The position numbers and the translations under genes are program-made. Shown piece after piece: positions 25,064 through 64,000 of a DNA stretch of 64,000 nucleotides. Source of the stretch: Takakia lepidozioides (taxonomy: Eukaryota; Plantae; Bryophyta); contig CM060733.1 in NCBI GenBank assembly GCA_030704615.1, forward strand, positions 15,562,001 to 15,626,000, given 5' to 3'. Within the stretch, counting starts at the first letter, position 1; every line of letters starts with the position of its first letter. The notes beneath the pieces were generated by a model. That model saw nothing but the letters and a program-made list of their open reading frames with translations. It searched no databases and had not been told where the DNA came from.

Positions 25064-27933
25064 ATGTTGATTCCACTGGCATTCCTGGCGGTGATGGAGG
25101 GAGGTCTGACATTGCTTCTCATCAGCAGGATAGAACCGTTGACGATGCTGGGAAGAGCCGTTTTGGATCTGTTGAAGACCACCAAAGGGGCCGCGATATC
25201 CAAAACCCTAGCTGCGACCTTTGTGGTTCTGCTGGCTTCAGATGTTGCCAGTATCTGCAGAATTCAGAAGCGCATCAGGAATGCGGGCTCCTCACATGCT
25301 GATCAGTTCATCATCCGATCCCAGATGCTGGAAGCCACATTGATTGGTGCGTGTCTACCGAATTACATGAACTTTAAAGCATTTGTTGTATTGATGACCT
25401 AGACCATTAGTCTGCACATCAGGAGATCGGTTATGACATTGTGAAGCATGCTAGCACTGTTGGAGAATGTGGAAACCCTGATAGAGCTGAGGTTTGGAAG
25501 AAGAAATACAAGAGCTTTGAAAGTAATGTAGGGGCATTTTAAGGTTCATCGCAACTTTGTACGCATATCAGCCCGATGTACGGCTAAATTTTCTAGTATG
25601 ACTAAACCTTGGATAGTATTCTTCTTCTTCACATCAGTAATGGAAACTTTCCTTGTTCAACAATGAGCTCAATTTCACTAAAGCTCTTGAGTTCCAACAA
25701 TAGCTATGGAAAGCAAGTTGCGTTATTAACTGTGTCATGGGATACTTTTGCAGTTTTTTATTTGGTTATCAAATTAAGAATAGGAATTGGTTCCGGATAG
25801 GAGCAAAGAAGGAAATGGAGTTTGGAATGATGGAATGAGTCTGCAAGAGGAAATCACCACTGATTCACAAATGAGTAGCTTGCCAAATTTACACAGGCAT
25901 AAGCTTTGCTGTGGGTGTGCAGGATTTTGTCTTTTGCTTGGGCTGGTGGTGGGTAGTTTGCATACATACTTGAAAGAGTTGGAGGGGCTGAAGCGTAACG
26001 TTGATGCTCTTAAGAAGCAGTCTCGAGGTAACATCTCTCTCTTCTAAGATGGACTATTAGGGGTTACATGGAGGGGCTGAAGCGTAACGTTGATGCTCTT
26101 AAGAAGCAGTCTCGAGGTAACATCTCTCTCTTCTAAGATGGACTATTAGGGGTTACATGTCCATTTTTGCTTAGCTGGCTGGATTTCATGAATGAATTGT
26201 TGGTGTGGTGATAATTGTGGAAATGCTGAGCTTAGCAGCGATCCCATGGCAACACGTGCTGCCAGCTCTGTCTATCTCTCTCTTTCTGCTTAAGGAGTGC
26301 ATGTCAGCATGCTCCAAAACAGCCAATGTGGCTGTTTGGGGTGAGTTTGGCATCCCTTCCTTAAGCTCCCGACGAGATGAATTCAAGGTCAGGTGGTGGG
26401 GTCAGTTGCAACACATGTCCAACACCAGATACCCTAAGTTAATCGACTCTATATCTTGGAAACAGGACCGCCCTGTCAAACAGACTAAGTCCTGGCAGAA
26501 GAGAGTAAAAGATTCTCAAGGATCTGAATCTGGACCCGCGAGTCTTGACCTTGCTGGATAAATCTGACTCGTCCAAAGCCATGTCTGTTACCAGAAAATT
26601 GTCTGATGCAAATGAAGTTAGGCAGAAAACTTCCCTGAACCTGTTTCCAGTCTGTGACATGGGGGAGGATATCATGGATGACAGGGTCTACCCACTCTCC
26701 GCACCAGACTGAAATTTAAACTCGGGGCAGGAAGCCAACCTTCGAGCAGTAAACAGAAGCAGAGAGGAAAGGGAGAGTGTAATTGCCCGTTGTGTGGGCA
26801 ACCTGAAGACAATATTCATTTTCTGATTCACTGTCCGGGGTACTCTCACCAGAGAGAAGCTCTCCTCCAATCTATCAAGAGATTTGTGTCTGTACCTCTG
26901 TTTACCAACTTTGAAAGTCTCGAGGCTGAGCCAAAAGCCCAGGCCCTTCTGAGGCCTAGTGTTTGGGCAAATCACACCTAGCAGATTGATGCTTGTGTGA
27001 AGGGATTTCTAGAGGATATCTGGAAAACCCGAATCAATTCTATGTATAAAGGTAAGTCTTACTACCAATGTCAGCCCCTGACAGAGGTAGGTTCTGTCCC
27101 TTTGGTTTCCGCTCAAACTGGGCGCGGGGTCAATGGCCACAAGGCTATGGCAAACAACGTCTTATGAGTACATTCTCTCTTTCTGCTTTCTAATCTCCTG
27201 TAAATTCCAATCCTTAAGAACAATTATTGGATTCCTTGCAACTGGAGTGCCATGGCAACCTCCCACTTTGAGATCACTTGGTCTTATAGCCTTCTACTAT
27301 TGGTGGATGGTTAGTATAGGGTGGTACTCTCAGGCGATATGTCACAGCCAATGTTCATAGCGGCTGGTCTACAAGTACATCATCTCTTCGCTCACTGTCA
27401 CAGTAGATACCAGGTCATAAGCATATCAAATTTCTGAAGGACCTTGGTCAGTAAGCTTGCATTATCTATTTCATTGGTTGTTTATTTCCCAGGTGGTGCT
27501 TCATGACCTTGACGGGCATAAGTATCTCTTAGATCTGATTAGACTGCTCCATGAGCTCCTTCATGGAATGTTCATATTGACTGCAATAATTTTCTTACAA
27601 TTGTTTGCACGTGTAGGTGCCCAAGCTGAGTACCTGCGGCTCCAAAGTGAGCAAAGTCTAAAGGACACAACAGATGAGTCGGCAGCAGAAGTAAAAAGCT
27701 TGAAAGATGTAATATCAGATTTGAGACAAAAATTGGAGAACCTACAGCTGGACACTCAATCAAAGGAGAGAGAGGCCAAGGCTGCCAAAGCTAATGCCCA
27801 AGCGCTAGAGAAGCAAGCTGAAGGGTTTCTTAATGAATACAACCGATTGATGGATGACAACGAGAATCTTCGCAACCAGTTGTCAACGTTTGATCGGAAG
27901 TACGCCAACTCTACCATGAAGAAATACTCGTAG
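25064..27933 (+). CDS. B-cell receptor-associated protein 31-like (BAP29/BAP31) ER membrane protein, 3 exons
   Basis: Exons 25064-25346, 25923-26027 and 27617-27933 with GT-AG sites and consistent phase. TM segments, LEATLIGF, and coiled coil ALEKQAEGFLNEYNRLMDDNENLRNQL. Confidence 0.9.
25980..26157 (+). repeat. Perfect 89-bp tandem duplication spanning the BAP31 exon 2 donor site
   Basis: tggaggggctgaagcgtaacg...tctcgag|gtaac...gggttaca occurs twice. Confidence 0.95.
26292..27173 (+). mobile_element. 5'-truncated LINE in BAP31 intron 2
   Basis: ORF2 C-terminus (CGQPEDNIHFLIHCPGY), family 3' end, and 15-bp TSD tctctctttctgctt (26277-26291 / 27174-27188). Confidence 0.9.
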
Positions 27934-30730: not shown

Positions 30731-32073
30731 ATGGCCACCAGCAAAATTTCATTCGACAGGTGGGTTCTGCTTCTCAGTCAGCTGATGCTCTTAGGAGTTA
30801 TGCCATGGAGCATGAGAGCAGACTCAGTAAAGGGAGGCTACTGGGAGGCTGGAGTGTCTGCATCGACGAGTCAATTCAATGCAAACTTCAACACGCACAT
30901 ACTCTATGCTTTTGCAGTGATGGATAGCACCTCCTTCAACGTGGGGGCCCCGACTGATGACAACGGGCAAATCAGTAGTTTCACCTCGATAGCCTCCGCC
31001 AGCAATCCTGCCGTTAAAACACTTCTCTCGATTGGGGGCGGAAACTCAAACTCTACGGCGTTTGGTAATATGGTGAGCACGGCAGCCAACCGCAAGGTCT
31101 TCATAAATAGCAGCATTTCTCTAGCCCGTCAGTATGGATTCAACGGCCTCGACCTTGACTGGGAGTACCCAAATTCAGACACAGACACAGCCAATCTGGC
31201 AACTTTCCTAGAGGAATGGAGGGCTGCGGTTGTGTCCGAGTCCCAGAGTTCTGGGAAATCAGAACTCCTTCTTACAGCAGCTGTATACTACCTTCCAACT
31301 TTGATCTACACTGGGCCCGGCACCCAAAAATATCCCATCAGCGCCATCAACAGCTATCTTGATTGGGTAAACATGATGGCGTATGACTATCACGGAGGAT
31401 GGGAAAGCAGTCAAACTGGAGAGCACACTGCCCTCTACGATCCTAATTCGAACCTCAACACCGACTATGGAGTTACAGAATGGCTCAATGCGGGGGTCAA
31501 TGCATCCCGGTTAGTGATGGGTCTTGCGTTCTACGGTCATTCCTGGACACTTTCCAACAGTTCTCAGACAGGTGTTGGGGCTCCAACCAGTGCGGCGGGT
31601 AGTGTCTACATTTACTCGGACATAGTCACCTTCAATCAGGACGCAACTGTTGTGGAGGACAGCACAACTGTATCCGAATACAGTTACAATTCAAGCCTCA
31701 CTTGGATTGGATATGACAACCCCAACACTATAGGGAGCAAAGTACAATATGCTTATGGAAAAAGCCTTCTGGGCTACTTCGCCTGGGCTCTCCATCAAGA
31801 TGACAGCAACTGGTCAATGGCCAAAGCAGGTAAATCAGGCTTAATGAATTATTGTCCTCATATTTCCAGTAGTAGGAACCTCCAACTCTCCTGATCTACC
31901 TATGCTTTGCACAGCATCTTCTAGTCATTGCTGCCCACATACTGGACTTGACGTAAGCACCTAGATTAATCTCGAAAGCGCTCCAAATTTTGCGATCACT
32001 GACACTTTCGCCTCATGAATTCTAACTAAAGTTGTTTGTGCGATTGTGTGTGGTTGCAGCGTATGACGTTTAG
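30731..32073 (+). CDS. Class V (GH18) chitinase, secreted
   Basis: Signal peptide, [17 protein letters not shown], intact catalytic [38 protein letters not shown]. Exon 30731-31829 plus a probable short last exon 32060-32073 (AYDV*). Confidence 0.93.
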
Positions 32074-48873: not shown

Positions 48874-49983
48874 TGTCATTCAGAGCCCTGAATCCGAGCG
48901 CAATGTAGAGTGCCCTAAACCTGCCACTAAGTCAACGTGACCATGAGAGCGGGTCCACACGAGTATAAAAATGCCAAAGGGAACGAACGAGACTGGGCTT
49001 GAGTGCTTGGGGTTAGATCTAAAAGCTTGAATGCTTGGAGTTGAGTGCTTGGAGTTAGATCTGAAAGTTTGAGGGTGTTTTATAGTTGGCAAAACATCAA
49101 ATTAGCATCATGGCACCTTCTGCTGATCATACCCGAGTGGAGAAGTTAGATGGTCACAATTTTCATACATAGAAGATTAAGATGAAGTTCATTCTTCATG
49201 AAAAAGATCTGTGGGAGATCACATCAGGAGAAGCGGTTGCACCAGTTCAACTGCAGCCTGAAGATGGAAAGATCATAGCCGCAGGGTTGACTCCTGAGCA
49301 ACAATTTTTTACGAAGAAAGATAAGTTGGCTTGAGGAACCATGTTGTTGAATGTAGCATATTCAATACTTCATCATGTTGCACATGCTAAAACTGTTAGA
49401 TAAGCATGGTTCAATCTATGTGTCAGTTTTGGAAGAAAGCATGTCATCAATCGGCTCTATCTTAACCAAGAGTTGTAAGATAGAAAAAGGAAGTTCAATT
49501 CAAGAAGAAGAAAACCAGAGTCTGTTTCGTTTGTGGCATAAAAAGTCATTATGCACGTGAATGCTTCAAGAAAAGCTAAACGATGAGAAGAAGGAAAAGT
49601 TACAGAGTGAAGTTTTATGGGCAATTATGGCTGACAGAACTAAACTTTTTGTTGTAGCTTTGTCAATCTCTCCTAGTTGTAGAGATGTGTGGTGAATCAT
49701 TGATTCAGGAACATCTCAACATATGACGTTCCAAAGGAAAGCATTCTCAACCTTCAAAGAACTCTTTGTGGGACACAATGTGTATCTTGGAGACAATAGT
49801 CCTACTAGTCTTGATATACATGAAAAGGTACTGTCATGTTTCAATTATCACTTGGAGTGTCATAAGAGATCGGAGATGTTCTCTATGTTCATAGATTGAT
49901 AAAGAACCTATTGTCAGTTAGTCAGCTAACTGAACAAGGTCTTATGGTTGAGGATTCTACCAGTCATTGTTGGTTGAACTAAG
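48874..49983 (+). mobile_element. Ty1/Copia retrotransposon, 5' part (degenerate PBS, gag, protease), pseudogenised
   Basis: PBS-like gtcattcagagcc near 48875. ATG 49110 MAPSADHTRVEKLDGHNFHT*KIKMKFILHEKDLWEI; protease IIDSGTSQHMT; VLYV..LIKNLLSVSQL. Multiple stops. Confidence 0.88.
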
Positions 49984-50310
49984 TGTCAAGTTATTTTACC
50001 ACTAGTGTGAAACTAGCTAGGAAATAGCTAGCTTTTACATATTGACATTTGGGATTGGCCCAAGTGTCAATCCAGGGGTCAAGGCAGATTTAGGCCCTGG
50101 AGTGGTTATCTTCACGGCAAGCGCGGAAGGCTCATCTTTCTCGAGTTGAGCCTCACCGCGCCTAGCTATGGCGCCGTAGTGTGGATTCCCCATGGCGTGG
50201 GGTGCACTTGGCTTGACTTGTATTTGAGTGATGAGGTTATATATGCATGAGTTTATGCTTCAGCTTTGTGAGCTCGCATGAGCTTGTGCTTGTATTCTTC
50301 TTCTTTATCA
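49984..50310 (+). repeat. Terminal repeat A1 (327 bp)
   Basis: tgtcaagttattttacc...ctttatca matches 61217-61541 with 1 substitution and one 2-bp indel. Contains TATA-like ttatatat near 50237. Confidence 0.95.
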
Positions 50311-51736
50311 CTCGAGAAAATGAGAGCTCGTATCTGTGAGTGCCAGATACGAGTTAGTTGTAGCACTTGTGGTTTTTGCTTGAGAATGAGAGAAACCAAG
50401 TTGTTTGCCCCAAGCCAAATCAGCCCTTTCGTTTGGTCTTGCAATCCTTCACACAATGAAAGCTCGCATTCCCAAGTCCAGTTCTCAGCTTTGCCACCAA
50501 AGCCACTATAACCTGCTCTTGACTGGTCCTCTTCCCAATCGTGCTTGCTCATGCATGTACACAATCTGAAACCATCAAGGTGCTCTGGAATTACCTGCAG
50601 CATGGTGCTTTCAAAGCTCTGAAGCTGGATCGAAATGCCAAGGTCTACCACCTCGTAACCCACATCGCCTCCGCTTCTAACAACCAAGAGCTCCACGGTG
50701 CTCCACTTTGTGGAGTATGGTGAGATTGGGTTTCAATCTCGAGCTTCAGCATTGAGAGGGCTCTTGTCATGGCAAGAGCAGGGCTGGAACATGAGCTAAG
50801 AGGTGCGGCAAGGCCATGGAATGTGCACCTAGGGTTTCAGAGCTTGGAAGAAGAGCTCTTGCACCACAAGAGAAGTGTCTTGTGGCTGGAAATGTAAGCC
50901 TTAGGGTTTCAGGAGCTTGGCAAAGGCTGTGGAGTGCTTAGTCTTGTCTTAGAGAGCATCAAGGAGCCAAGGAGCCAAGATAGGGGGCTGATATCTCTTA
51001 TGTGAAGAGGTTGCATGTGTGGAGCATGTATTCAGCTCATTGAAGCTTCCATCTTCAAGCTTGGAGGGCAAGCAAGGAAGTGGGAAGGGCTGACTTCCCT
51101 TATGTGAGGGCAATGCATGTGTAGAGCATGCTATCAGCCTGATGAAGGCTTGCACTTTCAGGTTTGTGGGTGCAAGAAATGAAGCAAATGATTCTCTTAT
51201 GGTGAGAGTGGGGCATGTGTGGAGCATGCCTTCAGCCCATTGAGGCTCTTGTTTTCAAGCTTAGAGAGCTAGAACGGAAGGTCTAGGGCTGGTTTCCACT
51301 TGGAGTGAAAGAAAAGCACTTGTAGGGCCTATGTGAGTTGGGGTTTCAAATTCAAGCTTGAAGGGAGCGCAACTCTTGAAGCAGCAGGTGTAGGGGGCTG
51401 GAATAGGCTCTAAGACAGATGCTATGGCCAAAGAGAGTGCTTGAATGAGTGCTCACAAGGGCTGGGAACCAGCAGGGCTTGGTTGTTTGCCATTGAGTTT
51501 AGTGGCGTGTTTGGGGAGGCTAAGTGAGAAAGAAGGCTTGGTTTGTGGCAACCACCTCATGGCTTAGGGCTACTATGGTGGTGTGTGGGAGCCGAAAGAG
51601 CAAGAATACCTTGCTGATTTCCTCACAGCCGCCATAGCTCGGTGGAAAGAAGCCTAGAGTCCAAGAGACACAAACCCTAGCTTGGCGTGGCTAAACCCCT
51701 TGGAGAAATGGCTAAACTGCCAGCGGCCATGGATGG

Positions 51737-52750
51737 GACTGTGACGGGCTGTGCCCATGGCCTTTGGGGCTGTGATGGGCTGTGAGGGCTGACAGGCCGT
51801 GCCTGAGGCCTTTGAGCTGTGACGGGCTGTGAGGGCTGTGACAGGCCGTGCCCTGAGGCCTTTGGGCTGTGAGGGGCTGTGTCAGGTGCAGGCTGTGTGT
51901 GACGGGCTGTGATGGGCTGTGACAGGCTGTGCTGGCCGTGGGGCTCTGTGACAGGCTGTGGCCTGTTGGGGCTGGGGCTGTGGGGCTGTGACAGGCCGTG
52001 CCTGAGGCCCTGTGACGGGCTGTTGTGGGCTGTGGACTGTGTGAGGATCTGTGAGGCTGTGAGGGCTGTGACAGGGTGCTGACGGGCTGAGGCTGTGACG
52101 GGCTGTGTGGGGCTGTGCCCAGTGCCTGTGGGGCTGTGACGGGCTGTGCGGGGCTGTGACGGCTGTGCTGGCCTGTTGGGGCTGTGACGGGCTGATGGGC
52201 TGTGAGGCTGTGACAGGCCGTGCCTGAGGCCTTTGGGCTGTGACGGGCTGTGAGGGTTGTGACGGCCGTGCCTGAGGCCTTTGGGGCTGTGACGGGGCTG
52301 TGAGGGGCTGTGTCAGGCCGTGCCTGAGGCCTGTGGGGCTGTGAGGGCAGGCTGTGAGGGGCTGTGACAGGTGTGAGGGCTGTTGTGAGGCCTGGGGCTG
52401 TGACGGGCTGTGAGGGGCTGTGTGTGCCTGGCCTTTGGGGCTGTGACGGGCTGTGAGGGGCTGTGAGGCCGTGCCTGAGGCCTTTGAGGCTGTGACGGGC
52501 TGTGCTGTGACAGGCCGTGCCTGAGGCCTTTGGGGCTGTGACGGGCTGTGAGGGGCTGTGACAGAGGCCTGGCTGTGAACAGGCCGTGCCTGAGGCCTTT
52601 GAGGCTGTGAGGGGCTGTGAGGGGCTGTGACAGGCCGTGCCTGAGGCCTTTGACTGTGAACTCAGGCTGACGGGGCATGTGACTGTGCCTGTGGACTGTG
52701 ACAGGCTGTGGCCGGGCTCTGTGTGTGCCCACCTGTGGGACTGTGACGGC
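51737..52750. repeat. ~1 kb GC-rich minisatellite in the retroelement leader
   Basis: ~10-bp units gggctgtga(c/g) interspersed with the higher-order motif acaggccgtgcctgaggcctttg. Confidence 0.95.
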
Positions 52751-53479
52751 TGTACCAGTGAGCTGTGTGGGCCTGTGCTGGTCTGTGGTGGCCCGTGTTG
52801 ACCTGTGGACGGCCTGTGCTGACTCGTGGAGGCACTGGTGGACTGCCTAAGGACTGGCATGTGGTCTGGAAGGCCGAATTTTGAAGCTCGTGGAGGGCGG
52901 TTTGAGGAGTATCTTCATGATATTCCCATGGTCATGCAAGTGAGGGAAGAGAGGAGAGGAAGAGTGTTGGGATGAGAGCATGCTGGGGTTAGGCATTGCT
53001 TTAGCTTCTTCCTCGTAGTTTCCACCCTCTCATTAGGCCAAGACCTTTCCGTAGGTGGAGGCAAGAGTCAGTCCGGGTTTGGGCTGGGGTGTCCTTGCAG
53101 GAGCAACACCGTGGAGTTGTTTTTTGGTGTGGGGGAGTTGTCGTTCTGATTTCTTGTGTTTGGATCCCCTCCATACCTGCATGCTTGACTGTGCGCCATG
53201 CTAGTTTTGTGTGGGCGCTTGTTTTTATAGGTGATTGGTCCGGATTTGATCACCGGCCAGTCCTAGAGCATGCTGTCGATGGTGAGGCTGGGTGATGACC
53301 AGCCAGACCATCATTGTTTCTCCTGTGGTGAGGTTGGAGGTGATGACCAGCCAACCATAGGAGTGCTTGCGGTGGATGCAGGTACAGGTGTAGGCTATGT
53401 TAGGAACTTAGTATTCCAAACCATAAGCCGCAACAGTTTCTCTACCCGGTTACCTTGTGGAGAGGGGGTTAGGGACATG

Positions 53480-54900
53480 TTCATGACCGGTTGAGTGTCA
53501 ACACGGAGGTGCCACTAGTTGCTGGGGACAGTGCCGGTTCGAGCACTAGCGATACTAGTGGGTACACGAGACGAGGTGTGCGGTTTAGGCCACCTTCACC
53601 TCCTGTGTCTTCCACGGAAGGTTCTGATTCGGATTGTGAATCAGGAGGACTCATACCGGCGGTGCAAGTTGTTTCTTTGCCATTGTTGTGGGACACAATG
53701 GAGGAGATGTATGGAGCTACCAAGGGCCACGAAGGTACTCTGGGGCGGTGGGCACCATCGAGTTGGATGATTTTATCCAAGAGTTTGATAGTTGGTGTGA
53801 TTTGCAGCAAATGCGCAATCCACAACTATTTACGCCTTTCATGGCATGGAAGGGGCTGTTTCAGCACCTTGAGGGGCCGCCTATGGATGATTACCATGAG
53901 TTCAGGCGGGGGCATGAGGTTGAGATCGAGGAGTGGAGGATGTACTGGTCACCCGACTATGTCTCCATCACTAGGGGCACTAGAGCCACGAGGGCAGTGG
54001 CTACACCTGCCGCTGCTGCACCGGCAGCTTCAGCAAGTAGCAGTGGGACTGGTGGTACAGTAGCTACGACGTCCACCCAAGCCACTACCGCACCAGCACT
54101 AGCACCCGTGCCTGCCTTCAACCCTGTTGTGGAGTTCTTCGAAGAGTTGAGAGGGAACTACCAAGGGGTGAGGACAGAGAAGTTGCGGAGCTTGCAAGAG
54201 TTCCAACGGAAGCCGACCGAGAGCTTGAGGGAGGCTTTCACTCGCATGAGGCGCTTGATAAATGTAACCCAAGGGGTTACGGAAGCTCAGGCAGTCCAAT
54301 TCTGGTATGGGATATTGGACAAGGAGCTGAGGAGAAGGGTGCGGGATGCAACTCTCCTACAAGCGGCCCAACCCACCTTAGCAAATGTGTTTTTTGCTGG
54401 CAGAGCGGATAGAGCTCAACATGGTGGAGGAACGAGTGGTCATGGTGGGATTTGCTAAGAGACACCACGGGGTAGTGGTGCTCCTAGCCAACCACTACCT
54501 CAACGTGCTCAAGGCAACAAGGGGGCTCAGGTGAAGCTCAGGGAAGGGCAGAGAGGACCTCAGATGCAGGGGTCTCTCCCTTCATTTGCTGGCCAACAAC
54601 GGGCGGATGTGGTGTGCTGGACATGTGGAGGACCCCATGTCAAGAAGGATTGCCAGAGGGAGGCAAAGGGCCGGCACATGCAGCCTGCACAGTTGCAGTG
54701 TGGGCATTGTGGCAAGCACGGGCATGGAGAGGCCCAGTGTTATGGTTTGCATCCTGAGTTGCGCCCAGGCCAGTTCCAAGGGAACAATGGTGGCCGGGGG
54801 CGAGGTGGAGCAGCCCAGAGAGGACGAGGTGGCCAGCCACGAGGCAGGCCAAGGGCAAGCTCAACGTGGCCAAGGACGCGGAGGTCAGGGTGTTGACCAA
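53480..54900 (+). CDS. gag: Gag (frameshifted in this sequence) with two zinc knuckles
   Basis: ELDDFIQEFDSWC, LQEFQRKPTESLREAFTRMRRL, AVQFWYGILDKELRRRV; CWTCGGPHVKKDC and CGHCGKHGHGEAQC. Confidence 0.8.
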
Positions 54901-55599
54901 GGCATGGCCAACCGGCTTCAGCAGCTAGAGCAGAGGCTCGCTGCCATGGCTACAGCTCAGGTGGTACCGGCTCTAAGGCCGGATGGTCCACCTCCTGCTC
55001 CTGAGGGAGGAGATATGGGAGGCATGGGATTCATGTGTGGAGCAGCACTACCACTAGTGCAGGTGGAGTCTGCTGCAGCCGTGACTCGAGGAGCAGCACG
55101 AGTTCCTGAGCCACGAGGTGCAGAGGTGGAGTTGGATCCACAGCGTGGGGAGGCAAGCCGTCAGGCTAGGCTTCCTCAGTCATTCACATTGGCGGAGACA
55201 GTGTCGACGCCATCCATGGCACCTAGTTCTCGCCCGACTGTTACCGAGGCGGAGGTTACTATGCCATTGGGGAGAGCTACACGGGTAGCACCACTACCTA
55301 GTGTTGCCAAGGCTACGGCAGCTAGTGTGCTGCTAGGAGCGGCCACATCTCTGTGTGCCAGGCTCCATTGTTCTCGGCTACCATGATTGCGACGCCGGGG
55401 GTAAGACCAGCTGAGGTGTTCAGGCTGGCAGCTACACTCTGTGAGAGTGGGGAGGTTACTTCATCTTCTGCGGAGATAGTGGGAGGTGTAGTGCCGGAGG
55501 GATCCTCGGATTTGAGGGTCAAGACTGCCACGGCGGCGCCATGGCAAGCTGCAGCTGCCAGGTTGATGGAGCTGCCAGCTAGGCCAGCCATTGAGCGCG

Positions 55600-56060
55600 C
55601 CATGGTGACACCTGGAGTTGTCATGTTAGACAACCAGGATGGCATTTTCTGTTTGAGTGGACCGGCAGGCAAGAGGTACCGGCCACTGCGGTCTTGTTGG
55701 ACTCGGGAGCTCAGCCATGATGCTGGGCAGAGCTGCTATTGCAGGCTTGGGCCTCACGGAGGCGGATATGGAGCCTTGTCCTTTCCAGATACAGACGTCT
55801 CTGGGAGGATCGGAGCAGGCTCGGGGCATGACACGGCGTGAGTTATGGCTATCAGACTCTACGGCCGGATCACCCTACAGATGGCTCAGTGATGCGAGCC
55901 AAGGCCATTGTGACAGACGCGGTCTCATACGATGTCCTGGTTGGGGGCAGTGTTGTACCCCATGGGCTTCACCCTGGATTTTTGGAGGAGTCAGCTTCCT
56001 ATAGGCTGCATGGCAGTCAGGGGAGGGCACCGGCGTGTGCAGCTTCCTGTGACGTTCATA
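55600..56060 (+). CDS. Retropepsin aspartic protease domain
   Basis: VLLDSGAQ at 55691-55714; AIVTDAVSYDVLVG. Confidence 0.8.
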
Positions 56061-56409
56061 GGAGGAGTTGCGGTTGCCCAGCGAGGCAAGATGCGACACT
56101 AGCAGCATTCACAGCGGCAGTGAGTTGGCCTAGAGAGTTGCTTGAGGGCAATGCTCATTCAGAGGATGTCCACCTCCGGGAGAAGCAGGATGACATGTAT
56201 GGTATGGCGGAGTTGCTACCATGGTGCTCAGACTCCATTGTGGGGCACGAGCAAGGATTTGCAGCGGGATGCTGATCGACGGGTGCAACAAGCCTGGGTG
56301 GAGGCTTTGTACCGTCAGGAGAGGAGAGAGTTGTGGGGATTGCACCAGGACCACCTCAGTTGTCTCCATTGGACACCACACCTATTGTGTGGCAGTATCC
56401 GGATGAAGC

Positions 56410-57345
56410 ATTTGTCTTCTGGACTTGTTTGGCGGGATCAGCACCGGATTGGCTGCTGTGTTACAGGCAGGTGTACGAGTTCGGCGTTACCTGTATGTGG
56501 AGAGGGATGATGAGACTGCACGACGCGTTTCACTTCGCCATGTTGCTCAGTTGGTGCAGCGGTACCCTTGCAATTCGTGGATATCAGCAGGCCTTGCCAG
56601 CAGACATTTTGTTGCTGGGGGGCGCAGGATTTGGAGCGGGTTGGCTCCATTGATCTGGTAGTGGCAGGTTGGCCCTGCCAAGGGCATTCATCAGCCGGGC
56701 ATGGCAATGGATTGCGAGACTCGAGGTCGGGTCTGTTTTGGGAGATGGTGCGGTTTTGCGCACTTGCAGCTTCATCAAGCTGTATCTCCAGCATACATCT
56801 TGGAGAATGTGCCACTGATGGGCGATTCTCGGGCCAGGGTGATGGCCAGTGTGCATCAAGTCCGGTCGTGGCTTGGGTCAGCAGTGTTGCTAGATGCAGC
56901 TACAGTGGGGTCACGGGCTCATCGTCACGGCTATGGTGGACTAACTTGATGCCACCCGCACTGCTCAAGCGTGCATTTGATGGGGTGCAGCGGCCAGCAC
57001 ATCTCACAGTGGATAACATTCTGGACACAGGGAGGCAGTCTCAGCGTGTGAGACACGATGACCGTTCGCCTTTGGCAGTGGTCAACAAGGTGGGTCAACC
57101 ACGAGCAGCATTACCTACACTGCTCAGCTTCCCAGGATCGCATGCTTTCCGGGATAGTGGACCTGGCCTCCTGTGGGATGCTCAGTTGCAGCAGTTAGTG
57201 GAGCCTAATGCTGACGAGCGTGAGCGGGCAATGGGTTTTACCACTGGTACCACGGCGGTGTCGTCTTTCTGAGGCATCACGTCGTCAAGTGTTGGGGCAA
57301 GCAATGGATCTCAATTGCTTGACCTGGATTATCAGCTTGGCTCTG
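56410..57345 (+). CDS. C5 cytosine DNA methyltransferase domain, Dnmt3-like, inside pol
   Basis: Motif I LDLFGGISTG; YLYVERD; motif IV IDLVVAGWPCQGHS (catalytic PC); GLRDSRSGLFWEMVR; motif VI YILENV; motif VIII LLDAATVGSRAHR.RLWWTNL; motif IX ERERAMGF; motif X RRQVLGQAM. Spread over several frames by short indels. Confidence 0.92.
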
Positions 57346-57759
57346 GCTGAGCAACGCAGAGTGCGGAGTACACTTCCCTCAATGGTCTCTCTGCCTACCG
57401 AGACGGTACAGGCAGTGAGTGGGGGCGAGCATGTGAGGACCACGGGGTGCATGCATCCATGGCACACGTGGGAGGTGCTCGAGGTTCAGAGGGATTGGCA
57501 GCCAAGGCGGCTGTGATGGATGAGGTTGGGGATTTTCTCGGGTGAGGAGGTCCTCAAGGATGAGATGATGGGGCAGGATGAGGCCTTGTCATTGACTGAG
57601 CAGGCAGGGAGTACTGCTCAAGAGGTTGCAACATAGCAACCACTGGACGCGTCCTCTACCTCTAAGCCCACTGGACTTAAGGTTGCAGTTACGGAGGACA
57701 ATTGGGAGCCTGACATTGGACCCATTGTCACCGGAGGAGAGAGACGACGTATACGGCGG

Positions 57760-59125
57760 TTCCTGAGGGCTTACAGGAATTGCTTTGCCTTCAGTTTGAA
57801 GACTTGGGAGCACTGAAGGGTCAAGAGATCCGTATTGAGTTGGCCACTGACACGCCAATCTTTCGGAGACCCTATAGATACAGTGACATGGAGAGGTCTT
57901 TGATTCAGATGAGGACTCAAGATCTCTGGGAGGCAGGTTTGGTGGAGCTCTCTGGTGGAGAGTATGCTTCAGCCACAGTGATGCCAGCCAAGAAGGATGT
58001 CTATGGCAATTGGACGGAGAGACGTATGTGCGGTGATTACCGGCCTGTAAATCGTCAGACCAAGTCCGATAAGTATGCCATGCCAACACCAGAGGAGATC
58101 TTTGATGCCATCGGGCATGCTAAGGCCTTTAGCACTTTGGATTTACGATCCGGATATCACCAGTTGCCAATCAAGGAGGCGGACAAGCAGAAGACGACAT
58201 TCTGGGGGATCAATGAGCACGGCAAGGATTGCCTATATCAGTGGCGGTTCTTACCATTTGGGCTTAAGAATGCTCCTGCAGAGTTTCAGAGAGTCATGGA
58301 TAGGATTCTAGCAGGGGTGGACTTTGCTCGGTGCTACATAGATGACATCATCATCTTTAGTGTTACGATGGAGGAGCATGAGAGACACCTTCAGGTGGTA
58401 TTGGCGCTTGAGAGCGCACGGATTGAAGTTGCATCCGGGGAAGTGCAAGTTTTTCCACAACCAGATTGAGTATCTGGGTCACATGATATATCCTGGAGGA
58501 TTGGGGGTACAGCAGACTAAGGTAGAGGCCATTGCACAAATTCCACGCCCCACGGATGTGAGCCGAGTTCGAGCTTTCATGGGGTTGGCAAACTATTATA
58601 GACGTTTGTCAAGGGATTTAGTACCATTGCAAAGGCTCTAACCAAGCTGACCAAGGTGGACCAGGAGTGGCAGTGGGAAGATGAGCAGGAACGAGCTTTT
58701 CAAGAGCTCAAGGCGAGGTTGACCTCGGCGCCTATCCTGAGACGACCTATCAGGGGGCGTCCCTTTCAGCTGCATACGGATTGGAGCATGCTGGGGCTTG
58801 GAGCGGTGCTCACACAGGTGGATGATGAGGGAAGAGAGTTTGTAGTGGCTTATGCTAGCCGCTCAAACAACGTGCAGAGGCTAAGTACAGCTCATATGAG
58901 GGAGAGTGCTTAGCTGCAGTGTGGGCCGTGGCACACTTCAGGTGCTATCTATACGGCAATCTTTTCACCCTTGTCACGGATCACCAGCCACTCAAGTGGT
59001 TGATGGAGTCAGACAAGCTTACGGGAAGCTTGCACGGTGGGCACTTATACTCCAGGAGTATGACTTTCAGGTTGTGCATCGACCGGGTTTGGTCAATCGG
59101 GATGCGGATGGATTGAGTCGCAATC
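57760..59125 (+). CDS. pol: Reverse transcriptase and RNase H (Ty3/Gypsy type)
   Basis: RRPYRYS, RMCGDYRPVN, FSTLDLRSGYHQL, LPFGLKNAPAEFQR, YIDDII, YLGH; TDWSMLGLGAVL, YASRS, LVTDHQPLKWL, ADGLSR. Confidence 0.95.
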
Positions 59126-59479
59126 CATGCATGAGCCAGCAGGATGACACTGGAGCTCGGTGGCATGGTGAGACGGACGAGGAGATGGTGCCGGGATGGC
59201 ACGCATCTGCATTTTTGTGTATCTTGGCATCGGGAGGTCAGATTGGACCTACAACAGGGATGACTGTAGACGGAGTGTCTGAGGACCCTGAGGCTAGTGA
59301 TGAGCTAGGTGGTGCCAGAGATATACATGAGGATTCGGCTGTGTTGGACTACCTCCGCACGGGAGACACGGCAGCCATTGTGACTGCCAGGGAGAGGGAT
59401 CGGATCCTGCAACGAGCCAAGAGGTTCAAGTGGGAGGGGATACACCTACTTCGAGTGTGGGAGGATGGTCGGGTGAGGA

Positions 59480-60600
59480 TTGTGCCTCACCCCACACAGC
59501 GTGCACGGTTAGTGCGGCATGCCATGAGGAGTTGGGGCATTTGGAGTGCGACGCACTCACAGTTTACTGCAGGGGCAGTATTGGTGGCGTGGTATGCATA
59601 CAGAGGTGCAACAGTTCGTGGCTAGGTGCATGGTGTGTGACAGGGTGCGTGCTTCATTCAACGCCCCTACACCACAGTTGCATCCTTTACCAATCATGGG
59701 ATTGGGCTACAGGTGGAGTCTTGACTTCGCAGGACCGTTGCCACTGACTATGCGCCACCACAGATATGTGTTGGTGATGGTGGAGCACTTCTCCAAGTGG
59801 ATTGAGTTGGTTCCATTGCCTGACAAGGCTAGTGAGGGGGGCTGCGTATGCATTCTTGGATCGTGTGCTTAGCCGATTTGGTGCTCCAGCTGAGGTACTC
59901 ACGGACCAAGGGAGAGAGTTTTTGGGGGGAGTTTCAGGCTTTGTGTGATAAAGCCTTGATAGACCACCGCACCACTTCTCGGGATCATCCTGAGGCCGAT
60001 GGCTTAGCAGAGAGAGTTGTTCAGACGGTGAAGAGGGGTTTGCGCAAGTATGGCTTGCAGAAGGGACACCTAGGAATTGGGATCTTCAGGTTCCTTGGTT
60101 AGCCATGGGCTACAGGTTCAGCAAACAAGCATCACTTGCCTCCTTCTCACCATATTTCCTTCTCTTTGGCCGAGAGCCGGATTTGCCTGCAGCCATTCGT
60201 AGGGACACTGCTCAAGTCCTTAACCTTGACGATCCGGACGTGTGGGTACGTGCATGTGATCAGCGTGCAGAGTTGTTCAAGAAAGTCATGCCCATGGCTT
60301 TTGAGAACCTTGCCATTGCACAGCACCGTGATACGTTGAGGTATGCCACTATACGTGGTGGAGGATATCGTCCTGGGGTTCGGAGGTTTAGCCCTGGTGA
60401 CTATGTTTATTTGCAGCAGACTGCTCCTACGACTCTGGATGTTACTGCAGGGCGTGTTATTCTGAGGGTTCGAGAGGTGTTGCCCTCAGGGGTCCTGATC
60501 TTGGAGGGTCGGGATGGCATGACTTGGAAGGACCATGTGCGTAATTGTGCGCCATGTCACCTTCCCAATGTCGATGGCAGAGTTGACCCAAACTTGGCAG
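59480..60600 (+). CDS. DDE integrase
   Basis: HEELGH...CMVCDR zinc motif; LDFAGPLP; VEHFSKWIE; TDQG; HPEADGLAERVVQTVK; SPYFLLFGREP. Confidence 0.92.
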
Positions 60601-60619
60601 TGGTACCTGCAGGTTTGAG

Positions 60620-60767
60620 GTGCATGCTCTGTGGGTCTGCCAAAGGGGGGCAGCCACCATGCTGGTGTGTGATCGATGCTCAAGGGGGTTGGCATATGGG
60701 ATGCTTGACACCACCTCTTGAGAAGGTTCCTGACGGAGATTGGTTGTGTCCACACTGCTTGGGATAG
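60620..60767 (+). CDS. C-terminal PHD finger of pol
   Basis: CMLC...MLVCDRC..GWHMGCLTPPLEKVPDGDWLCPHC (C4HC3, with a local frameshift), then TAG. Confidence 0.9.
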
Positions 60768-61016
60768 TGGCAGTGGACATGACTGGAGGCAGCTAACAAG
60801 ACATGGGAGGCCAAGCTCATAGGAGTCAATACATGAGATCCCAAGCTCAAGTTCACAGGTTGCAAGACGGCGACTAACGATGGGGCAACTCTTGCACCCG
60901 GCCTCTTGATCTATCGAGTTTGAGTGTAGTAGGGATAGTGGTGGAGGACTTAGTGAGGCTATGGTCACTATCACATCTTGTGGCTACCTGGACTTAGAGG
61001 GACCTAAGCACCAGCT

Positions 61017-61026
61017 AGGGGGGCGA
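61017..61026 (+). promoter_or_regulatory. Putative polypurine tract
   Basis: aggggggcga immediately precedes repeat B1. Confidence 0.55.
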
Positions 61027-61214
61027 TTGTGTGGACTAGTGACTGCCATAGTGGGCAGCATAGTGGCAGCCTAGTGACTGACTAGTTGTAGCCTAGTGGT
61101 TGGACTAGTGGCTGGACTAGTGGTGGACTAGTGGTATACTAGTGTGTGGTGTGCACATGTGTTGTGTGGTTTTGGACAGCGAGTAGTTGTGTAGCGATAT
61201 GTATGCGCACGACA
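61027..61214 (+). repeat. Terminal repeat B1
   Basis: ttgtgtggactagt...gcgcacgaca matches 61542-61730. Confidence 0.95.
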
Positions 61215-61216
61215 GC

Positions 61217-61541
61217 TGTCAAGTTATTTTACCACTAGTGTGAAACTAGCTAGGAAATAGCTAGCTTTTACATATTGACATTTGGGATTGGCCCAAGTGT
61301 CAATCCAAGGGTCAAGGCAGATTTAGGCCCTGGAGTGGTTATCTTCACGGCAAGCGCGGAAGGCTCATCTTTCTCGAGTTGAGCCTCACCGCGCCTAGCT
61401 ATGGCGCCGTAGTGTGGATTCCCCATGGCGTGGGGTGCACTTGGCTTGACTTGTATTTGAGTGATGAGGTTATATATGCATGAGTTTATGCTTCAGCTTT
61501 GTGAGCTCGCATGAGCTTGTGCTTGTATTCTTTCTTTATCA
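61217..61541 (+). repeat. Terminal repeat A2
   Basis: Near-identical to 49984-50310. Confidence 0.95.
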
Positions 61542-61730
61542 TTGTGTGGACTAGTGACTGCCATAGTGGGCAGCATAGTGGCAGCCTAGTGACTGACTAG
61601 TTGTAGCCTAGTGGTTGGACTAGTGGCTGGACTAGTGGTGGACTAGTGGTATACTAGTGTGTGGTGTGCACATGTGTTGTGTGGTTTTGGACAACGATGT
61701 AGTTGTGTAGCGATATGTATGCGCACGACG
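61542..61730 (+). repeat. Terminal repeat B2
   Basis: Near-identical to B1 (1 internal substitution, 1 indel, terminal A vs G). Confidence 0.95.
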
Positions 61731-63540
61731 TAAGGTAGTTCAAGATGCAAGATTGTACAAGCTGTTGGGGCTGTCCAGGCATTACATGTGGATTGTAATG
61801 CTACACTCAAGCAGAGTGACCTCGAACATCAGAGACTTGGACATGTCTCAATCCAAAGTTTGGCATGCATGTCAGCTAACAATCTGGTTGAAGCATGGAT
61901 CTTAAAGGAGATCAGGTTTTGAGCGTTTGTGACGGATGTGTGTATGGTAAACACCATCGCAACTCATTTCCAAAGGATGGAGGTTCTCGAACAAAGAAGG
62001 TTCTTGAACCGGTGCATACTGATCTATGCGGTCATATGTCGTCTGAATCTCATGAAGGTGCAAAGTATTTTTTGACCTTCACTGATGAGTTTTCATAGAA
62101 AAAATTTCTTTACATGATGTAGAATAAGTTTGGAGTTCTCGATAGATTCAAAACATTCAAAGCTTTGGTGGAGAATCAAACTGGAGAAATGATCAAAATA
62201 CTTCGGTGTGATGGCGGTGGTGAGTACATCTCAAGGAATTTTAATCAATTCTATAAGGAGAATGGTATTGTGAAACAATCAATCACACCATATACGCTAA
62301 AGAAGAATGGAGTTGCATAGAGGACGCTTGTTGAAAGTGTGAAGAGTATGTTGCAACACATGAGGTTGGACCACGTTTCTGGGTAGAAGTAGTGGCGACT
62401 GCAACATATCTCTGTAATCGACTTCATACTAAGGCAATCTCTACAAAGACACCTAAAGAGGTTTGGAAGGGTGAGAAACCTTCAGGTGATCATTTGCGCG
62501 TCTTTGGGTATGTTGCATTTGCCCTCACAAAAAAAAGTATGCCCTCACATATTCCAAAAGAAGTAAGGAAGAAATTGGATGCAAAAAGCATCAAGTGTAT
62601 CTTCATTGGTTATTGTGAAGAAACCAAAGGGTATAAGTTGTATAACCCTGAGAGCAAGTATGTGATCATCAGTTGTGATGTGATATTCAATGAGTCTAGG
62701 AACTTTAATCAAAAAACAGTAGTTCCAAGTTTGGACCATGAAAAAAAGAACTTGGCTCTAACACATGAAGATAAAATGGAAGTGAAGATTGTTGAAGAGA
62801 TAGTTGAGGTTCAAATGGAGGAGGCACAATCTATAATGATTGAAAAATCCTCAAAGGTTTCTTCTGCCTATTTCATTGACAGTGATGAACCTCAAAGTGT
62901 GTCAGATGCAATGAGGAGTGGGACTCTTCACACTAGAAGGAAGCTATGGCATCTGAGTTTAAGTCTCTTCAGGATAATAAGACTTGGAGTCTTGTTCAAC
63001 TTCCATCTGGACGGCAATCTGTTGGCTGCAAATGGATTTTCAAGATTAAGTACAATGCAGATGGTTCTGTAGCAAGGTACAAAGCGCGCTTGGTTGCAAA
63101 GGGGTTTTCGCAAATTGAAGGTATTGATTACAATGAAACCTTCTCCCCTGTTGTACGGATGAAGTCAATTCAAGTGATTCTAGCGTTTGCTGCTGTTGAA
63201 AATCTTGAGGTACATCAGATGGATGTATGTAGAGCCTTTCTCAATGGAGATCTTATGGAAGAAATATACATGGACCAGCCGGAGGGATTTGCTGTTAAAA
63301 GGAAGGAGATGATGGTTTGTAAGCTCCTAAAGTCCTTGTATGGTTTGAAGCAATCCCCTAGGGCATGGAATGCTAAGATTGATGCATATTTCATGGCTGA
63401 AGAGTTTGAGAAGAGCTATGCTGATTATAGTGTTTACTATAAGAGGGCTCATGGAAACTCTTCTGTGATCATAATATTGTATGTTGATGATTTGATCTTG
63501 GTCTCTAATGACTTGACTTTGTTGAAACACATACGGAGTG
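61731..63540 (+). mobile_element. Ty1/Copia retrotransposon, 3' part (integrase, RT), pseudogenised and truncated
   Basis: HQRLGH, CDGCVYGKHHR, VHTDLCG, LRCDGGGEY, KLDAKSIKCIFIGY, RYKARLVAKGFSQ, HQMDV, KSLYGLKQSPRAW, YVDDLIL. Confidence 0.93.
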
Positions 63541-64000
63541 TCAATATCTCAAATGAGATTGAGATAGTGGTTGTGTGATCATAACAAATTGACTTTGTTG
63601 AAACAAAGACAAAGTGATATCTCAAAGAGGTTTGAGATGGTGGATCTGAAAGAGATCCTGTGATCACGTGTTAATGATCAGTCTTTGTTGAAAAGACAAA
63701 GTGATATCTCAAAGAGGTTTGAGATGGTGGATCTGAAAGAGATCTTGTGATCATGTGTTAATGATCAGTCTTTGTTGAAAAGACAAAGTGATATCTCAAA
63801 GAGGTTTGAGATGGTGGATCTGAAAGAGATCCTATGATCATGTATTAATGATCAATCTTTGTTGAAAAGACAAAGTGATATCTCAAAGAGGTTTGAGATG
63901 GTGGATCTGAAAGGGATCCTGTGATCATGTGTTGATCAGGCTCTGTTGAAAAAGACAAAGCGATATCTCAATGAAGTTTTGAGATGGTGGATCTAAAAGA
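63513..64000 (+). repeat. Tandem array, ~87-bp unit, about 5 copies plus a degenerate leading copy, running off the window
   Basis: ctttgttgaaaagacaaagtgatatctcaaagaggtttgagatggtggatctgaaagagatcctgtgatc... starts at 63593, 63683, 63770, 63857 and 63941. Confidence 0.95.

Follow-up and report, generated by a model that had tools for sequence, protein, structure and literature searches.

Some retrotransposons encode a cytosine methyltransferase of their own. An algal and a dinoflagellate example, of the kind mentioned in the initial annotation of the DNA analyzed here, are documented in the available text of de Mendoza et al. (2018) (PMC5890265). The closest described system is KnitGypsy-Dnmt3 of Klebsormidium nitens, which those authors called an acquisition in the K. 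nitens lineage. Like the Takakia element described below, it has a Gypsy domain set, a nonpermuted Dnmt3-type domain between protease and reverse transcriptase (the order PR-DNMT-RT, as in KFL_009030040), and a signature of purifying selection, and its repeats are DIRS-like in the order A-coding-B-A-B, according to the legends of their Figures 1 and 4. When the Klebsormidium domain was tried in yeast no methylation was seen, a result the authors considered inconclusive. SymbioDIRS-Dnmt3, from the same study, shares with the Takakia element a Dnmt3-type domain and the A-coding-B-A-B repeats, but it encodes a tyrosine recombinase, whereas the Takakia element encodes a DDE integrase; its methyltransferase carried out de novo CG methylation in yeast.

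Several other systems resemble the element in part. Tf1/sushi elements and Tcn1 chromoviruses (PMC6317226; bioRxiv 2022.12.06.519325) likewise have a self-priming site complementary to the interior of the LTR, some of them together with a readthrough in-frame stop. They differ in carrying a chromodomain, in placing the stop between Gag and PR-RT-IN, and in having an ordinary pair of LTRs, and no methyltransferase is mentioned in the available text of these sources (the word is absent from that of PMC6317226, PMC12885004, and PMC9985172). Foamy virus and HIV-1 integrases cut the palindromic LTR-LTR junction (PMC1180852, PMC1905944). As far as those accounts go, what is cut in such two-LTR circles is the site where the ends were joined, and a canonical provirus results, whereas in the Takakia element the palindrome is encoded inside the LTR that reverse transcription would define and insertion yields a permuted form. 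EpiLTRs and DAM-LTRs (bioRxiv 10.64898/2026.05.21.726589) are, like the Takakia element, Gypsy-like and combine a methyltransferase with a chromatin reader, but theirs are DAM and DNMT4-like domains with a chromodomain, and the available text of that paper sets them apart from streptophyte Gypsy-DNMT3.

Here we describe a Gypsy-Dnmt3 element of the moss Takakia lepidozioides, located in a stretch of 64,000 nucleotides (the window; contig CM060733.1, positions 15,562,001 to 15,626,000). The kind itself is already known from KnitGypsy-Dnmt3, as are the domain order and the A-coding-B-A-B repeats. What is added here are relatives in liverworts and Sphagnum, a chlorophyte sister lineage, a stop codon after the methyltransferase, and the anatomy of the element ends. 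Our literature searches, with subscription papers, Repbase, and Dfam outside their scope, returned no account of land-plant or chlorophyte Gypsy-Dnmt3 elements, of the readthrough stop, or of the integration route. Marchantia and Sphagnum are absent from the searched supplements of PMC5890265, and the KnitGypsy-Dnmt3 account, in its available text, does not include priming sites, the palindrome, a 4-bp duplication, a PHD finger, or an integration model. Retrotransposon DNMT3 in “streptophytes” is mentioned in the available text of PMC12344493 and bioRxiv 10.64898/2026.05.21.726589, and the supplementary trees of these two papers may contain land-plant sequences already.

Anatomy of the element and identity of the methyltransferase

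The Ty3/gypsy element carrying the methyltransferase (DNMT) domain spans window positions 49984-61730 (Table 1). Every C5-methyltransferase motif named in the initial annotation was recovered at its place and in canonical order between 56419 and 57312: LDLFGGISTG (56419-56448), AGWPCQG (56664-56684), YILENVP (56794-56814), GSRAHR (56908-56925), RLWWTNL (56928-56948), ERERAMGF (57216-57239), and RRQVLGQAMDL (57280-57312). The motifs of this copy are split over two reading frames, and one uninterrupted piece of the domain matches PF00145 with E 1.4e-8, above the curated cut-off. The assignment to Dnmt3 rather than DRM, also made at the outset, is borne out by an intact natural relative (L001), for which human DNMT3A and DNMT3B are the top solved matches by sequence (E 3e-11) and the best solved matches by predicted fold (pTM 0.79; Foldseek E 3e-15), with alignment to DNMT3A over motif I to X. 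In the sequence comparison, the bacterial enzymes HaeIII and HhaI and a methyltransferase chain with differently ordered motifs rank far lower than DNMT3A/B. DRM, the permuted Dnmt3 of plants, was rejected for the window domain because the motifs are not circularly permuted.

The placement between protease and reverse transcriptase (RT) was likewise correct, with the protease D-S-G at ~55700 and the RT match (PF00078) starting at ~57800. The further claim that the domain is collinear within pol stands for the order PR-DNMT-RT but not for a single reading frame shared with RT, because a conserved TAG at 57634 intervenes. The Gag of the window copy is 50%-53% identical to Marchantia ORF1.

Table 1. 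Features of the Takakia Gypsy-Dnmt3 element, in window coordinates
Feature	Position	Strand	Basis
Left target-site duplication, TAAG	49980..49983	.	Sequence; identical 4-mer after the right end
Repeat A1 (TGTCA...TCA), at the left edge of the insertion, contains the putative self-primer	49984..50310	+	99% identity to A2, 1 substitution
Putative self-primer, complementary to the primer-binding site; candidate RNA 5' end	50130..50145	+	9-nt perfect match ending at A position 162
Primer-binding site (PBS), self-priming type, immediately 3' of A1	50311..50325	+	Covarying match in relatives
Low-complexity tandem array, long 5' untranslated region	51740..52760	+	Repeat families D1 and D12
Gag, frameshifted, two CCHC-type knuckles (54615-54638, 54699-54725)	53715..54770	+	PF03732 weak, below cut-off; motifs
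Aspartic protease region, frameshifted, D-S-G at ~55700	55620..55990	+	Motif; aligns with the part of relatives that carries the protease
Dnmt3-type C5 cytosine methyltransferase domain	56410..57375	+	Canonical order of motifs I-X, including catalytic PC and ENV
Conserved stop in type I readthrough context, TAG-CAA-CCA, ending Gag-PR-DNMT	57634..57642	+	Same frame as the beginning of the RT ORF
Reverse transcriptase (YIDD at 58335) and RNase H	57795..59100	+	PF00078, PF17919, PF17917
DDE integrase and H2C2 zinc finger; acidic residues in LDFAGP (59720), TDQG (59895), ERVV (60010)	59480..60410	+	PF17921, PF00665 weak; motifs
C-terminal PHD finger	60610..60767	+	PF00628 weak in the window copy, above cut-off in intact relatives
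Polypurine tract adjoining B1	61017..61026	+	Equivalent tract before B in 7 related loci
Repeat B1 (TTGTG...CGACA)	61027..61214	+	99% identity to B2
Palindromic B/A junction GACA-GC-TGTC, candidate integrase attachment site	61211..61220	.	Identical in L017, L022, L037; one base off in L016
Repeat A2	61217..61541	+	99% identity to A1
Repeat B2, right end of the inserted element; terminal CA of B1 is CG in B2	61542..61730	+	99% identity to B1
Right target-site duplication, TAAG	61731..61734	.	Sequence

In most respects the element is a regular member of Ty3/gypsy: it has the order PR-RT-RH-IN, a DDE integrase, TG...CA ends (the last base of the window copy differs), and a 4-bp duplication, within the 4-6 bp typical of that group. 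In place of one full LTR per end it has A-coding-B-A-B. Other groups were considered and rejected. DIRS, Ngaro, and PAT do not fit, given the rve and H2C2 DDE integrase, the 4-bp duplications, and the lack of a tyrosine recombinase. Chromoviruses carry a chromodomain at the position occupied here by the PHD finger, and it was on this C-terminal difference that the Tcn1 chromovirus clade was excluded. The Phygy clade was excluded because the target 4-mers do not follow its NCGN preference. Troyka elements, considered because of the split repeats, have CG...CG ends and a 3-bp duplication and are confined to animals (available text of PMC12440569), which sets them apart from the ends and 4-bp duplications seen here.

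The window copy is broken. Frameshift-aware comparison with the closest natural proteins placed six frameshifts (at ~56409, 56569, 56621, 56754, 56927, and 57267) and no in-frame stops over 56321-57477, and 12 frameshifts, again without in-frame stops, in the part from RT to the PHD finger, for a total of 18 over these two parts. Decayed relatives show the opposite pattern (1-2 frameshifts and 4-13 stops). The element is covered at high depth by contigs of several studies, and among the matches listed (12 of 37), contigs X1, X5, and X6, which come from three runs of different studies, have indel differences at or near several of the frameshift sites. A further run, X12, possibly of RNA, reaches part of the stretch but misses the methyltransferase core and was left out of the evidence. 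The 18 frameshifts are likely to be assembly errors, and we infer that the copy is a young insertion seen through an assembly with indel errors.

Distribution and phylogeny

Of 2026 candidates, 61 proteins matched the uninterrupted piece of the window domain. Marchantia polymorpha accounts for 13 of them, Calypogeia fissa for one, and Sphagnum for two, and the best matches share 50%-55% identity. A profile search returned 88 proteins out of 7980 and extended the range to Klebsormidium nitens, Scenedesmus, Haematococcus, and Chromochloris (Hariotina was also found), and 499 domain representatives, inspected in part, have E up to 1e-30. No fern, lycophyte, or seed-plant names occur among the matches of these protein searches, in a class of proteins that is often unannotated. 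IMG/VR yielded only three weak, short matches among 29 candidates. The single GTDB locus (L037) is a plant-type Gypsy-Dnmt3 element in a cyanobacterial bin.

Two arrangements of the domain predominate. Among 178 proteins, 55 have it after the protease or before RT and 74 between RNase H and integrase; in 16 the domain stands alone, and 33 are without it (35 of the 178 have PR-DNMT without RT). All named members of the PR-DNMT-RT type are streptophytes, including Klebsormidium KFL_009030040 with the same order as in Takakia, and all named members of the RNase H-DNMT-integrase type are chlorophytes. In a domain tree built with a quick method from element domains only, with no host DNMT3 outgroup, the window sequence falls in a 22-row clade with liverwort and Sphagnum proteins (SH-aLRT 100), and the RNase H-DNMT-integrase type forms a 75-row clade (SH-aLRT 100) that includes one protein scored as PR-DNMT-RT type. 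The RT tree (FastTree, with a weak root) splits the same two architecture groups. The Klebsormidium sequence is a distant branch from the window in both the domain and RT trees. Both sequences lie outside the chlorophyte clade, although the deep forks are weak and the trees have no DNMT-less Gypsy outgroup.

We are highly confident that the Takakia element belongs to the Gypsy-Dnmt3 (KnitGypsy-Dnmt3) lineage. The chlorophyte elements with the domain between RNase H and integrase are a sister lineage. The initial annotation had proposed a retrotransposon-encoded Dnmt3-like enzyme, and this has held up well: the domain is not confined to one copy but is kept across copies and species, in liverwort, moss, and algal elements. 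A separate capture in land plants, by contrast, is much less probable than membership in the lineage described from Klebsormidium.

Some individual sequences deserve mention. Marchantia gene models of ~1280 aa (P0189-P0197), on autosomes and the V chromosome and annotated as hypothetical, are Gag-PR-DNMT ORFs of the family of the Takakia element. The chlorophyte lineage is large, with the order RT-RH-Dnmt3-integrase-PHD in P0107, P0117, P0119, P0081, and 70 further proteins. L037, from a genome bin labeled as a cyanobacterium and probably a contaminant there, is a contig of 9285 bp whose two ends are identical over 127 bp. Read as a circle it gives B-A-internal, either a collapsed repeat or a one-LTR circle, and L016 is permuted likewise.

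A conserved stop after the methyltransferase

In all 20 loci that hold both sides of the spacer following the domain, a stop in the context stop-CAR-YY is present; 15 of these are one family, so that about five lineages are represented (13 of 33 loci were excluded because one spacer side is missing, and L005 was dropped because of a nested insertion). The spacer stop is the sole in-frame stop in L001, L015, L016, L017, L022, L023, and L037. The strict form, TAG-CAR-YYA, is found in the window, L001, L015, L016, L017, and L037, and arises in 1%-2% of shuffled spacers. The relaxed motif arises in 14%-21% of shuffled spacers, and 15 of the 20 spacers (the one family) carry CAA-CCC rather than the strict form. 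UAG-CAR-YYA drives readthrough in tobacco mosaic virus (PMC3542737), and in Tf1-group elements the ratio of Gag to Gag-Pol is set by in-frame stops (bioRxiv 2022.12.06.519325), in both cases according to the available text. The stop is not universal, as P0041, P0068, and the Klebsormidium model each have one continuous ORF.

Going by the reading frames, the methyltransferase domain is the closing part of a Gag-PR-DNMT ORF and thus outside Pol proper, and the Marchantia gene models do terminate after it. This differs from KnitGypsy-Dnmt3, whose domain is described, in the available text, as part of the Pol ORF, whereas the Takakia element has the readthrough-type stop behind it. On this arrangement the methyltransferase would be made one to one with Gag, in excess of RT and integrase. 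As a separate observation, L001 has a second single in-frame stop just 5' of the methyltransferase (L001:3192-3194) in a copy that is otherwise open.

Repeat ends and a proposed route of integration

The initial annotation took near-identical terminal repeats as a sign of recent activity. The near-identity stands, with one substitution per pair (A, 327 nt; B, 188 nt), but the repeats are not a simple LTR pair, being laid out as A-coding-B-A-B. L022 has this layout despite repeat sequences unrelated to those of the window. In contigs representing other copies in the organism of the window, the end of A is followed by either the primer site or B, which means that the window copy is not alone in having this layout.

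The ends follow a consistent pattern. In all four insertions with both ends seen (the window, L022, L027, and L007), 4-bp duplications directly adjoin A on the left and B on the right. The target 4-mers recorded for the window and related loci are TAAG, AAGG, CACA, ATGT, CATC, AACG, GTGT, and AAGT. Five of five B/A junctions read GACA-NN-TGTC, four as a perfect palindrome, and a G-rich tract lies 5' of B in the window and seven related loci. The bases after A complement a stretch 160-195 nt inside A, with perfect matches of 9-16 nt in eight of nine elements (in one of them at a second, deeper site) and a 6-nt match, at chance level, in the ninth (L013). This complementarity is seen in three unrelated sequence versions. 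The match in the window was reached by 2 of 300 shuffles, and the self-primer pairs with the primer-binding site in the predicted fold. The A/B junction varies in the manner of a ligation scar: it is flush in the window, has one extra base in L022, and retains part of the primer site in L027.

In LTR elements, priming at the primer-binding site and the purine tract fixes the ends of the cDNA. Priming after A and before B makes the cDNA begin with B and finish with A (B-A-internal-B-A). The inserted form differs from this cDNA in that the first B now stands at the opposite end, a change that calls for A to be joined to B and for a cut at B/A. We propose that the minus strand is likely self-primed after A and the plus strand primed at the purine tract before B, giving a linear B-A-internal-B-A cDNA, and that the ends of this cDNA are likely joined. 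The integrase would then make a cut, staggered by 2 bases, in the B/A palindrome that lies in the upstream repeat, producing an A-internal-B-A-B insertion with a 4-bp duplication. A cut after CA on both palindrome strands leaves 2-base 5' overhangs, as in processed retroviral ends; there is a CG just inside the end of B. Judged from the pattern of the ends, we regard end-joining of the cDNA followed by an internal cut at B/A as the probable route, with moderate confidence. A difficulty for such a circle is that it holds two equal palindromes and should also yield A-B-A-internal-B, so that some bias has to be assumed: this mirror form is absent in the window and L007, and in related loci B precedes A at none of seven left ends.

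The absence of the mirror form is accounted for by another route. In split-repeat elements of the DIRS/PAT type, RNA run-on and template switching have been proposed. If the RNA of the Takakia element ran into B2 and template switches at B/A completed both ends, A-internal-B-A-B would arise with no end-joining or internal cut, and insertions would be A-first alone; SymbioDIRS-Dnmt3 does have the same repeat layout. That route does not account for the retention, across families, of a self-priming site behind A, which covaries, and of a purine tract ahead of B, the pair that sets where the cDNA starts and stops, or for the primer-site remnant at the A/B junction of L027, of a kind that aberrant retroviral circle junctions may hold. 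We consider DIRS-like template switching unlikely.

A broader reading can be put forward tentatively, and we hold it to be somewhat less than an even chance. A green-plant-wide LTR clade would have shifted its integrase site away from the ends of the cDNA and into an LTR-internal palindrome, making end-joined (circular) cDNA obligatory and converging on a DIRS-like form with a DDE integrase, and a Gag-level Dnmt3 would methylate this intermediate, possibly marking which palindrome is cut. The occurrence of Dnmt3 in both split-repeat DIRS and split-repeat Gypsy elements hints, speculatively, at a link of methylation to the end-joined intermediate.

A few copies depart from the general layout. 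L027 is a rearranged copy, and L028 looks to be the same insertion. L007 and L008 end in a single B, possibly from a one-LTR circle or from B-B recombination. In L007 (5945-5970), only 11 bases of A are left, apparently because the part between two copies of a short sequence common to both its ends was deleted, and the target duplication is kept.

Possible role of the methyltransferase

With a Dnmt3-type domain closing the Gag-PR ORF, the enzyme is likely made and packaged at the level of Gag, and RT, RNase H, integrase, and the PHD finger are likely produced via readthrough of a leaky stop. The protease likely frees the methyltransferase in the particle, where the enzyme likely methylates new cDNA. 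A methylated copy would arrive host-like in its marking, or be protected while extrachromosomal, following the proposal in the available text of PMC5890265 and in line with the CG activity of SymbioDIRS-Dnmt3. Readthrough, packaging, and the activity and target of the enzyme, as read here from sequence, seem to us slightly on the likely side. The explanation as a whole, that is, an element of the Gypsy-Dnmt3 lineage with a Gag-level methyltransferase, readthrough, self-priming, and end-joining with an internal cut, we would put at a little better than even.

Between families, dN/dS is 0.12-0.19 for the methyltransferase domain and 0.03-0.10 for RT (four pairs in each case, with dS near saturation, at 1.3-1.9; the domain values are from relatives, as pairs with the window copy are not computable). 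The domain is, by these ratios, under purifying selection between families and does not evolve neutrally. Within one decayed family the values are 0.49-0.72 for the domain and 0.39-0.94 for RT. The SAM-binding, catalytic PC, ENV, and RxR motifs are retained across green-plant lineages; by a crude pattern, PC was found in 103 of 133 domains, with about a fifth lacking it. The observed/expected CpG ratio is 0.52 in the element, 0.32-0.38 in the neighboring Copia element, and 0.43 in the rest of the window, and there is accordingly no CpG depletion in the element, relative to neighboring DNA, as a mutational trace of CG self-methylation.

Some of these observations would also suit a domain kept for a noncatalytic or non-cDNA job, either within the Gag precursor, as a structural segment or one that binds RNA or DNA, or as an enzyme acting with the PHD finger on the insertion site or host chromatin. 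Gag-level amounts exceed the need of one cDNA, the Klebsormidium domain was negative in yeast, the element shows no extra CpG loss, and constraint on the domain is weaker than on RT. Against this, the conservation of the motifs named above across green-plant lineages speaks for catalysis, and the chlorophyte lineage has the domain inside Pol, which fits a particle enzyme better than a part of the capsid. Such a role strikes us as improbable, though worth keeping in view. That the domain is a functionless passenger, a piece of host Dnmt3 captured once in the window copy or an assembly chimera, might be suggested by the frameshifts, but it is refuted, to the point of being barely conceivable, by its high depth in contigs of several studies, its same position in liverwort, moss, and algal elements, its purifying selection, and the 499 representatives.

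What had been reported as an oddity of one alga becomes an old lineage of chlorophytes, charophytes, liverworts, and mosses. In Marchantia polymorpha there are many uninterrupted ORF1 copies, annotated as hypothetical genes, so that the role of a transposon's own methyltransferase is testable in a model land plant. The element ends suggest a nonstandard route of LTR integration that would have to pass through two-LTR-like circles. There are practical consequences for annotation as well: LTR finders that assume one LTR pair will misplace the ends of Gypsy-Dnmt3 elements, and some of the DNMT3 genes counted in seed-free plants may be such elements.

Other features of the window

The Gypsy-Dnmt3 insertion interrupts a Ty1/copia element (49100-49983 and 61735-63578) whose integrase-side and RT parts resume on the right with SH3-like and RVT_2 domains, and an 87-bp tandem repeat (63518-63936) lies within the Copia RT region. 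Elsewhere in the window are a host gene (30731-31894, + strand) for a class V (GH18) chitinase that begins like a signal peptide and whose matches point to Streptophyta at large, where the element trees suggest a seed-free land plant, an F-box-like gene in two frames with a weak KIB1-4 beta-propeller match (21255-22242, - strand), and an exon resembling, by a weak match, the C-terminal coiled coil of BAP29/BAP31 (27421-27933, + strand). Dispersed repeat families occupy 14400-47200, including ~1.6-kb-scale duplications 15.7 kb apart.
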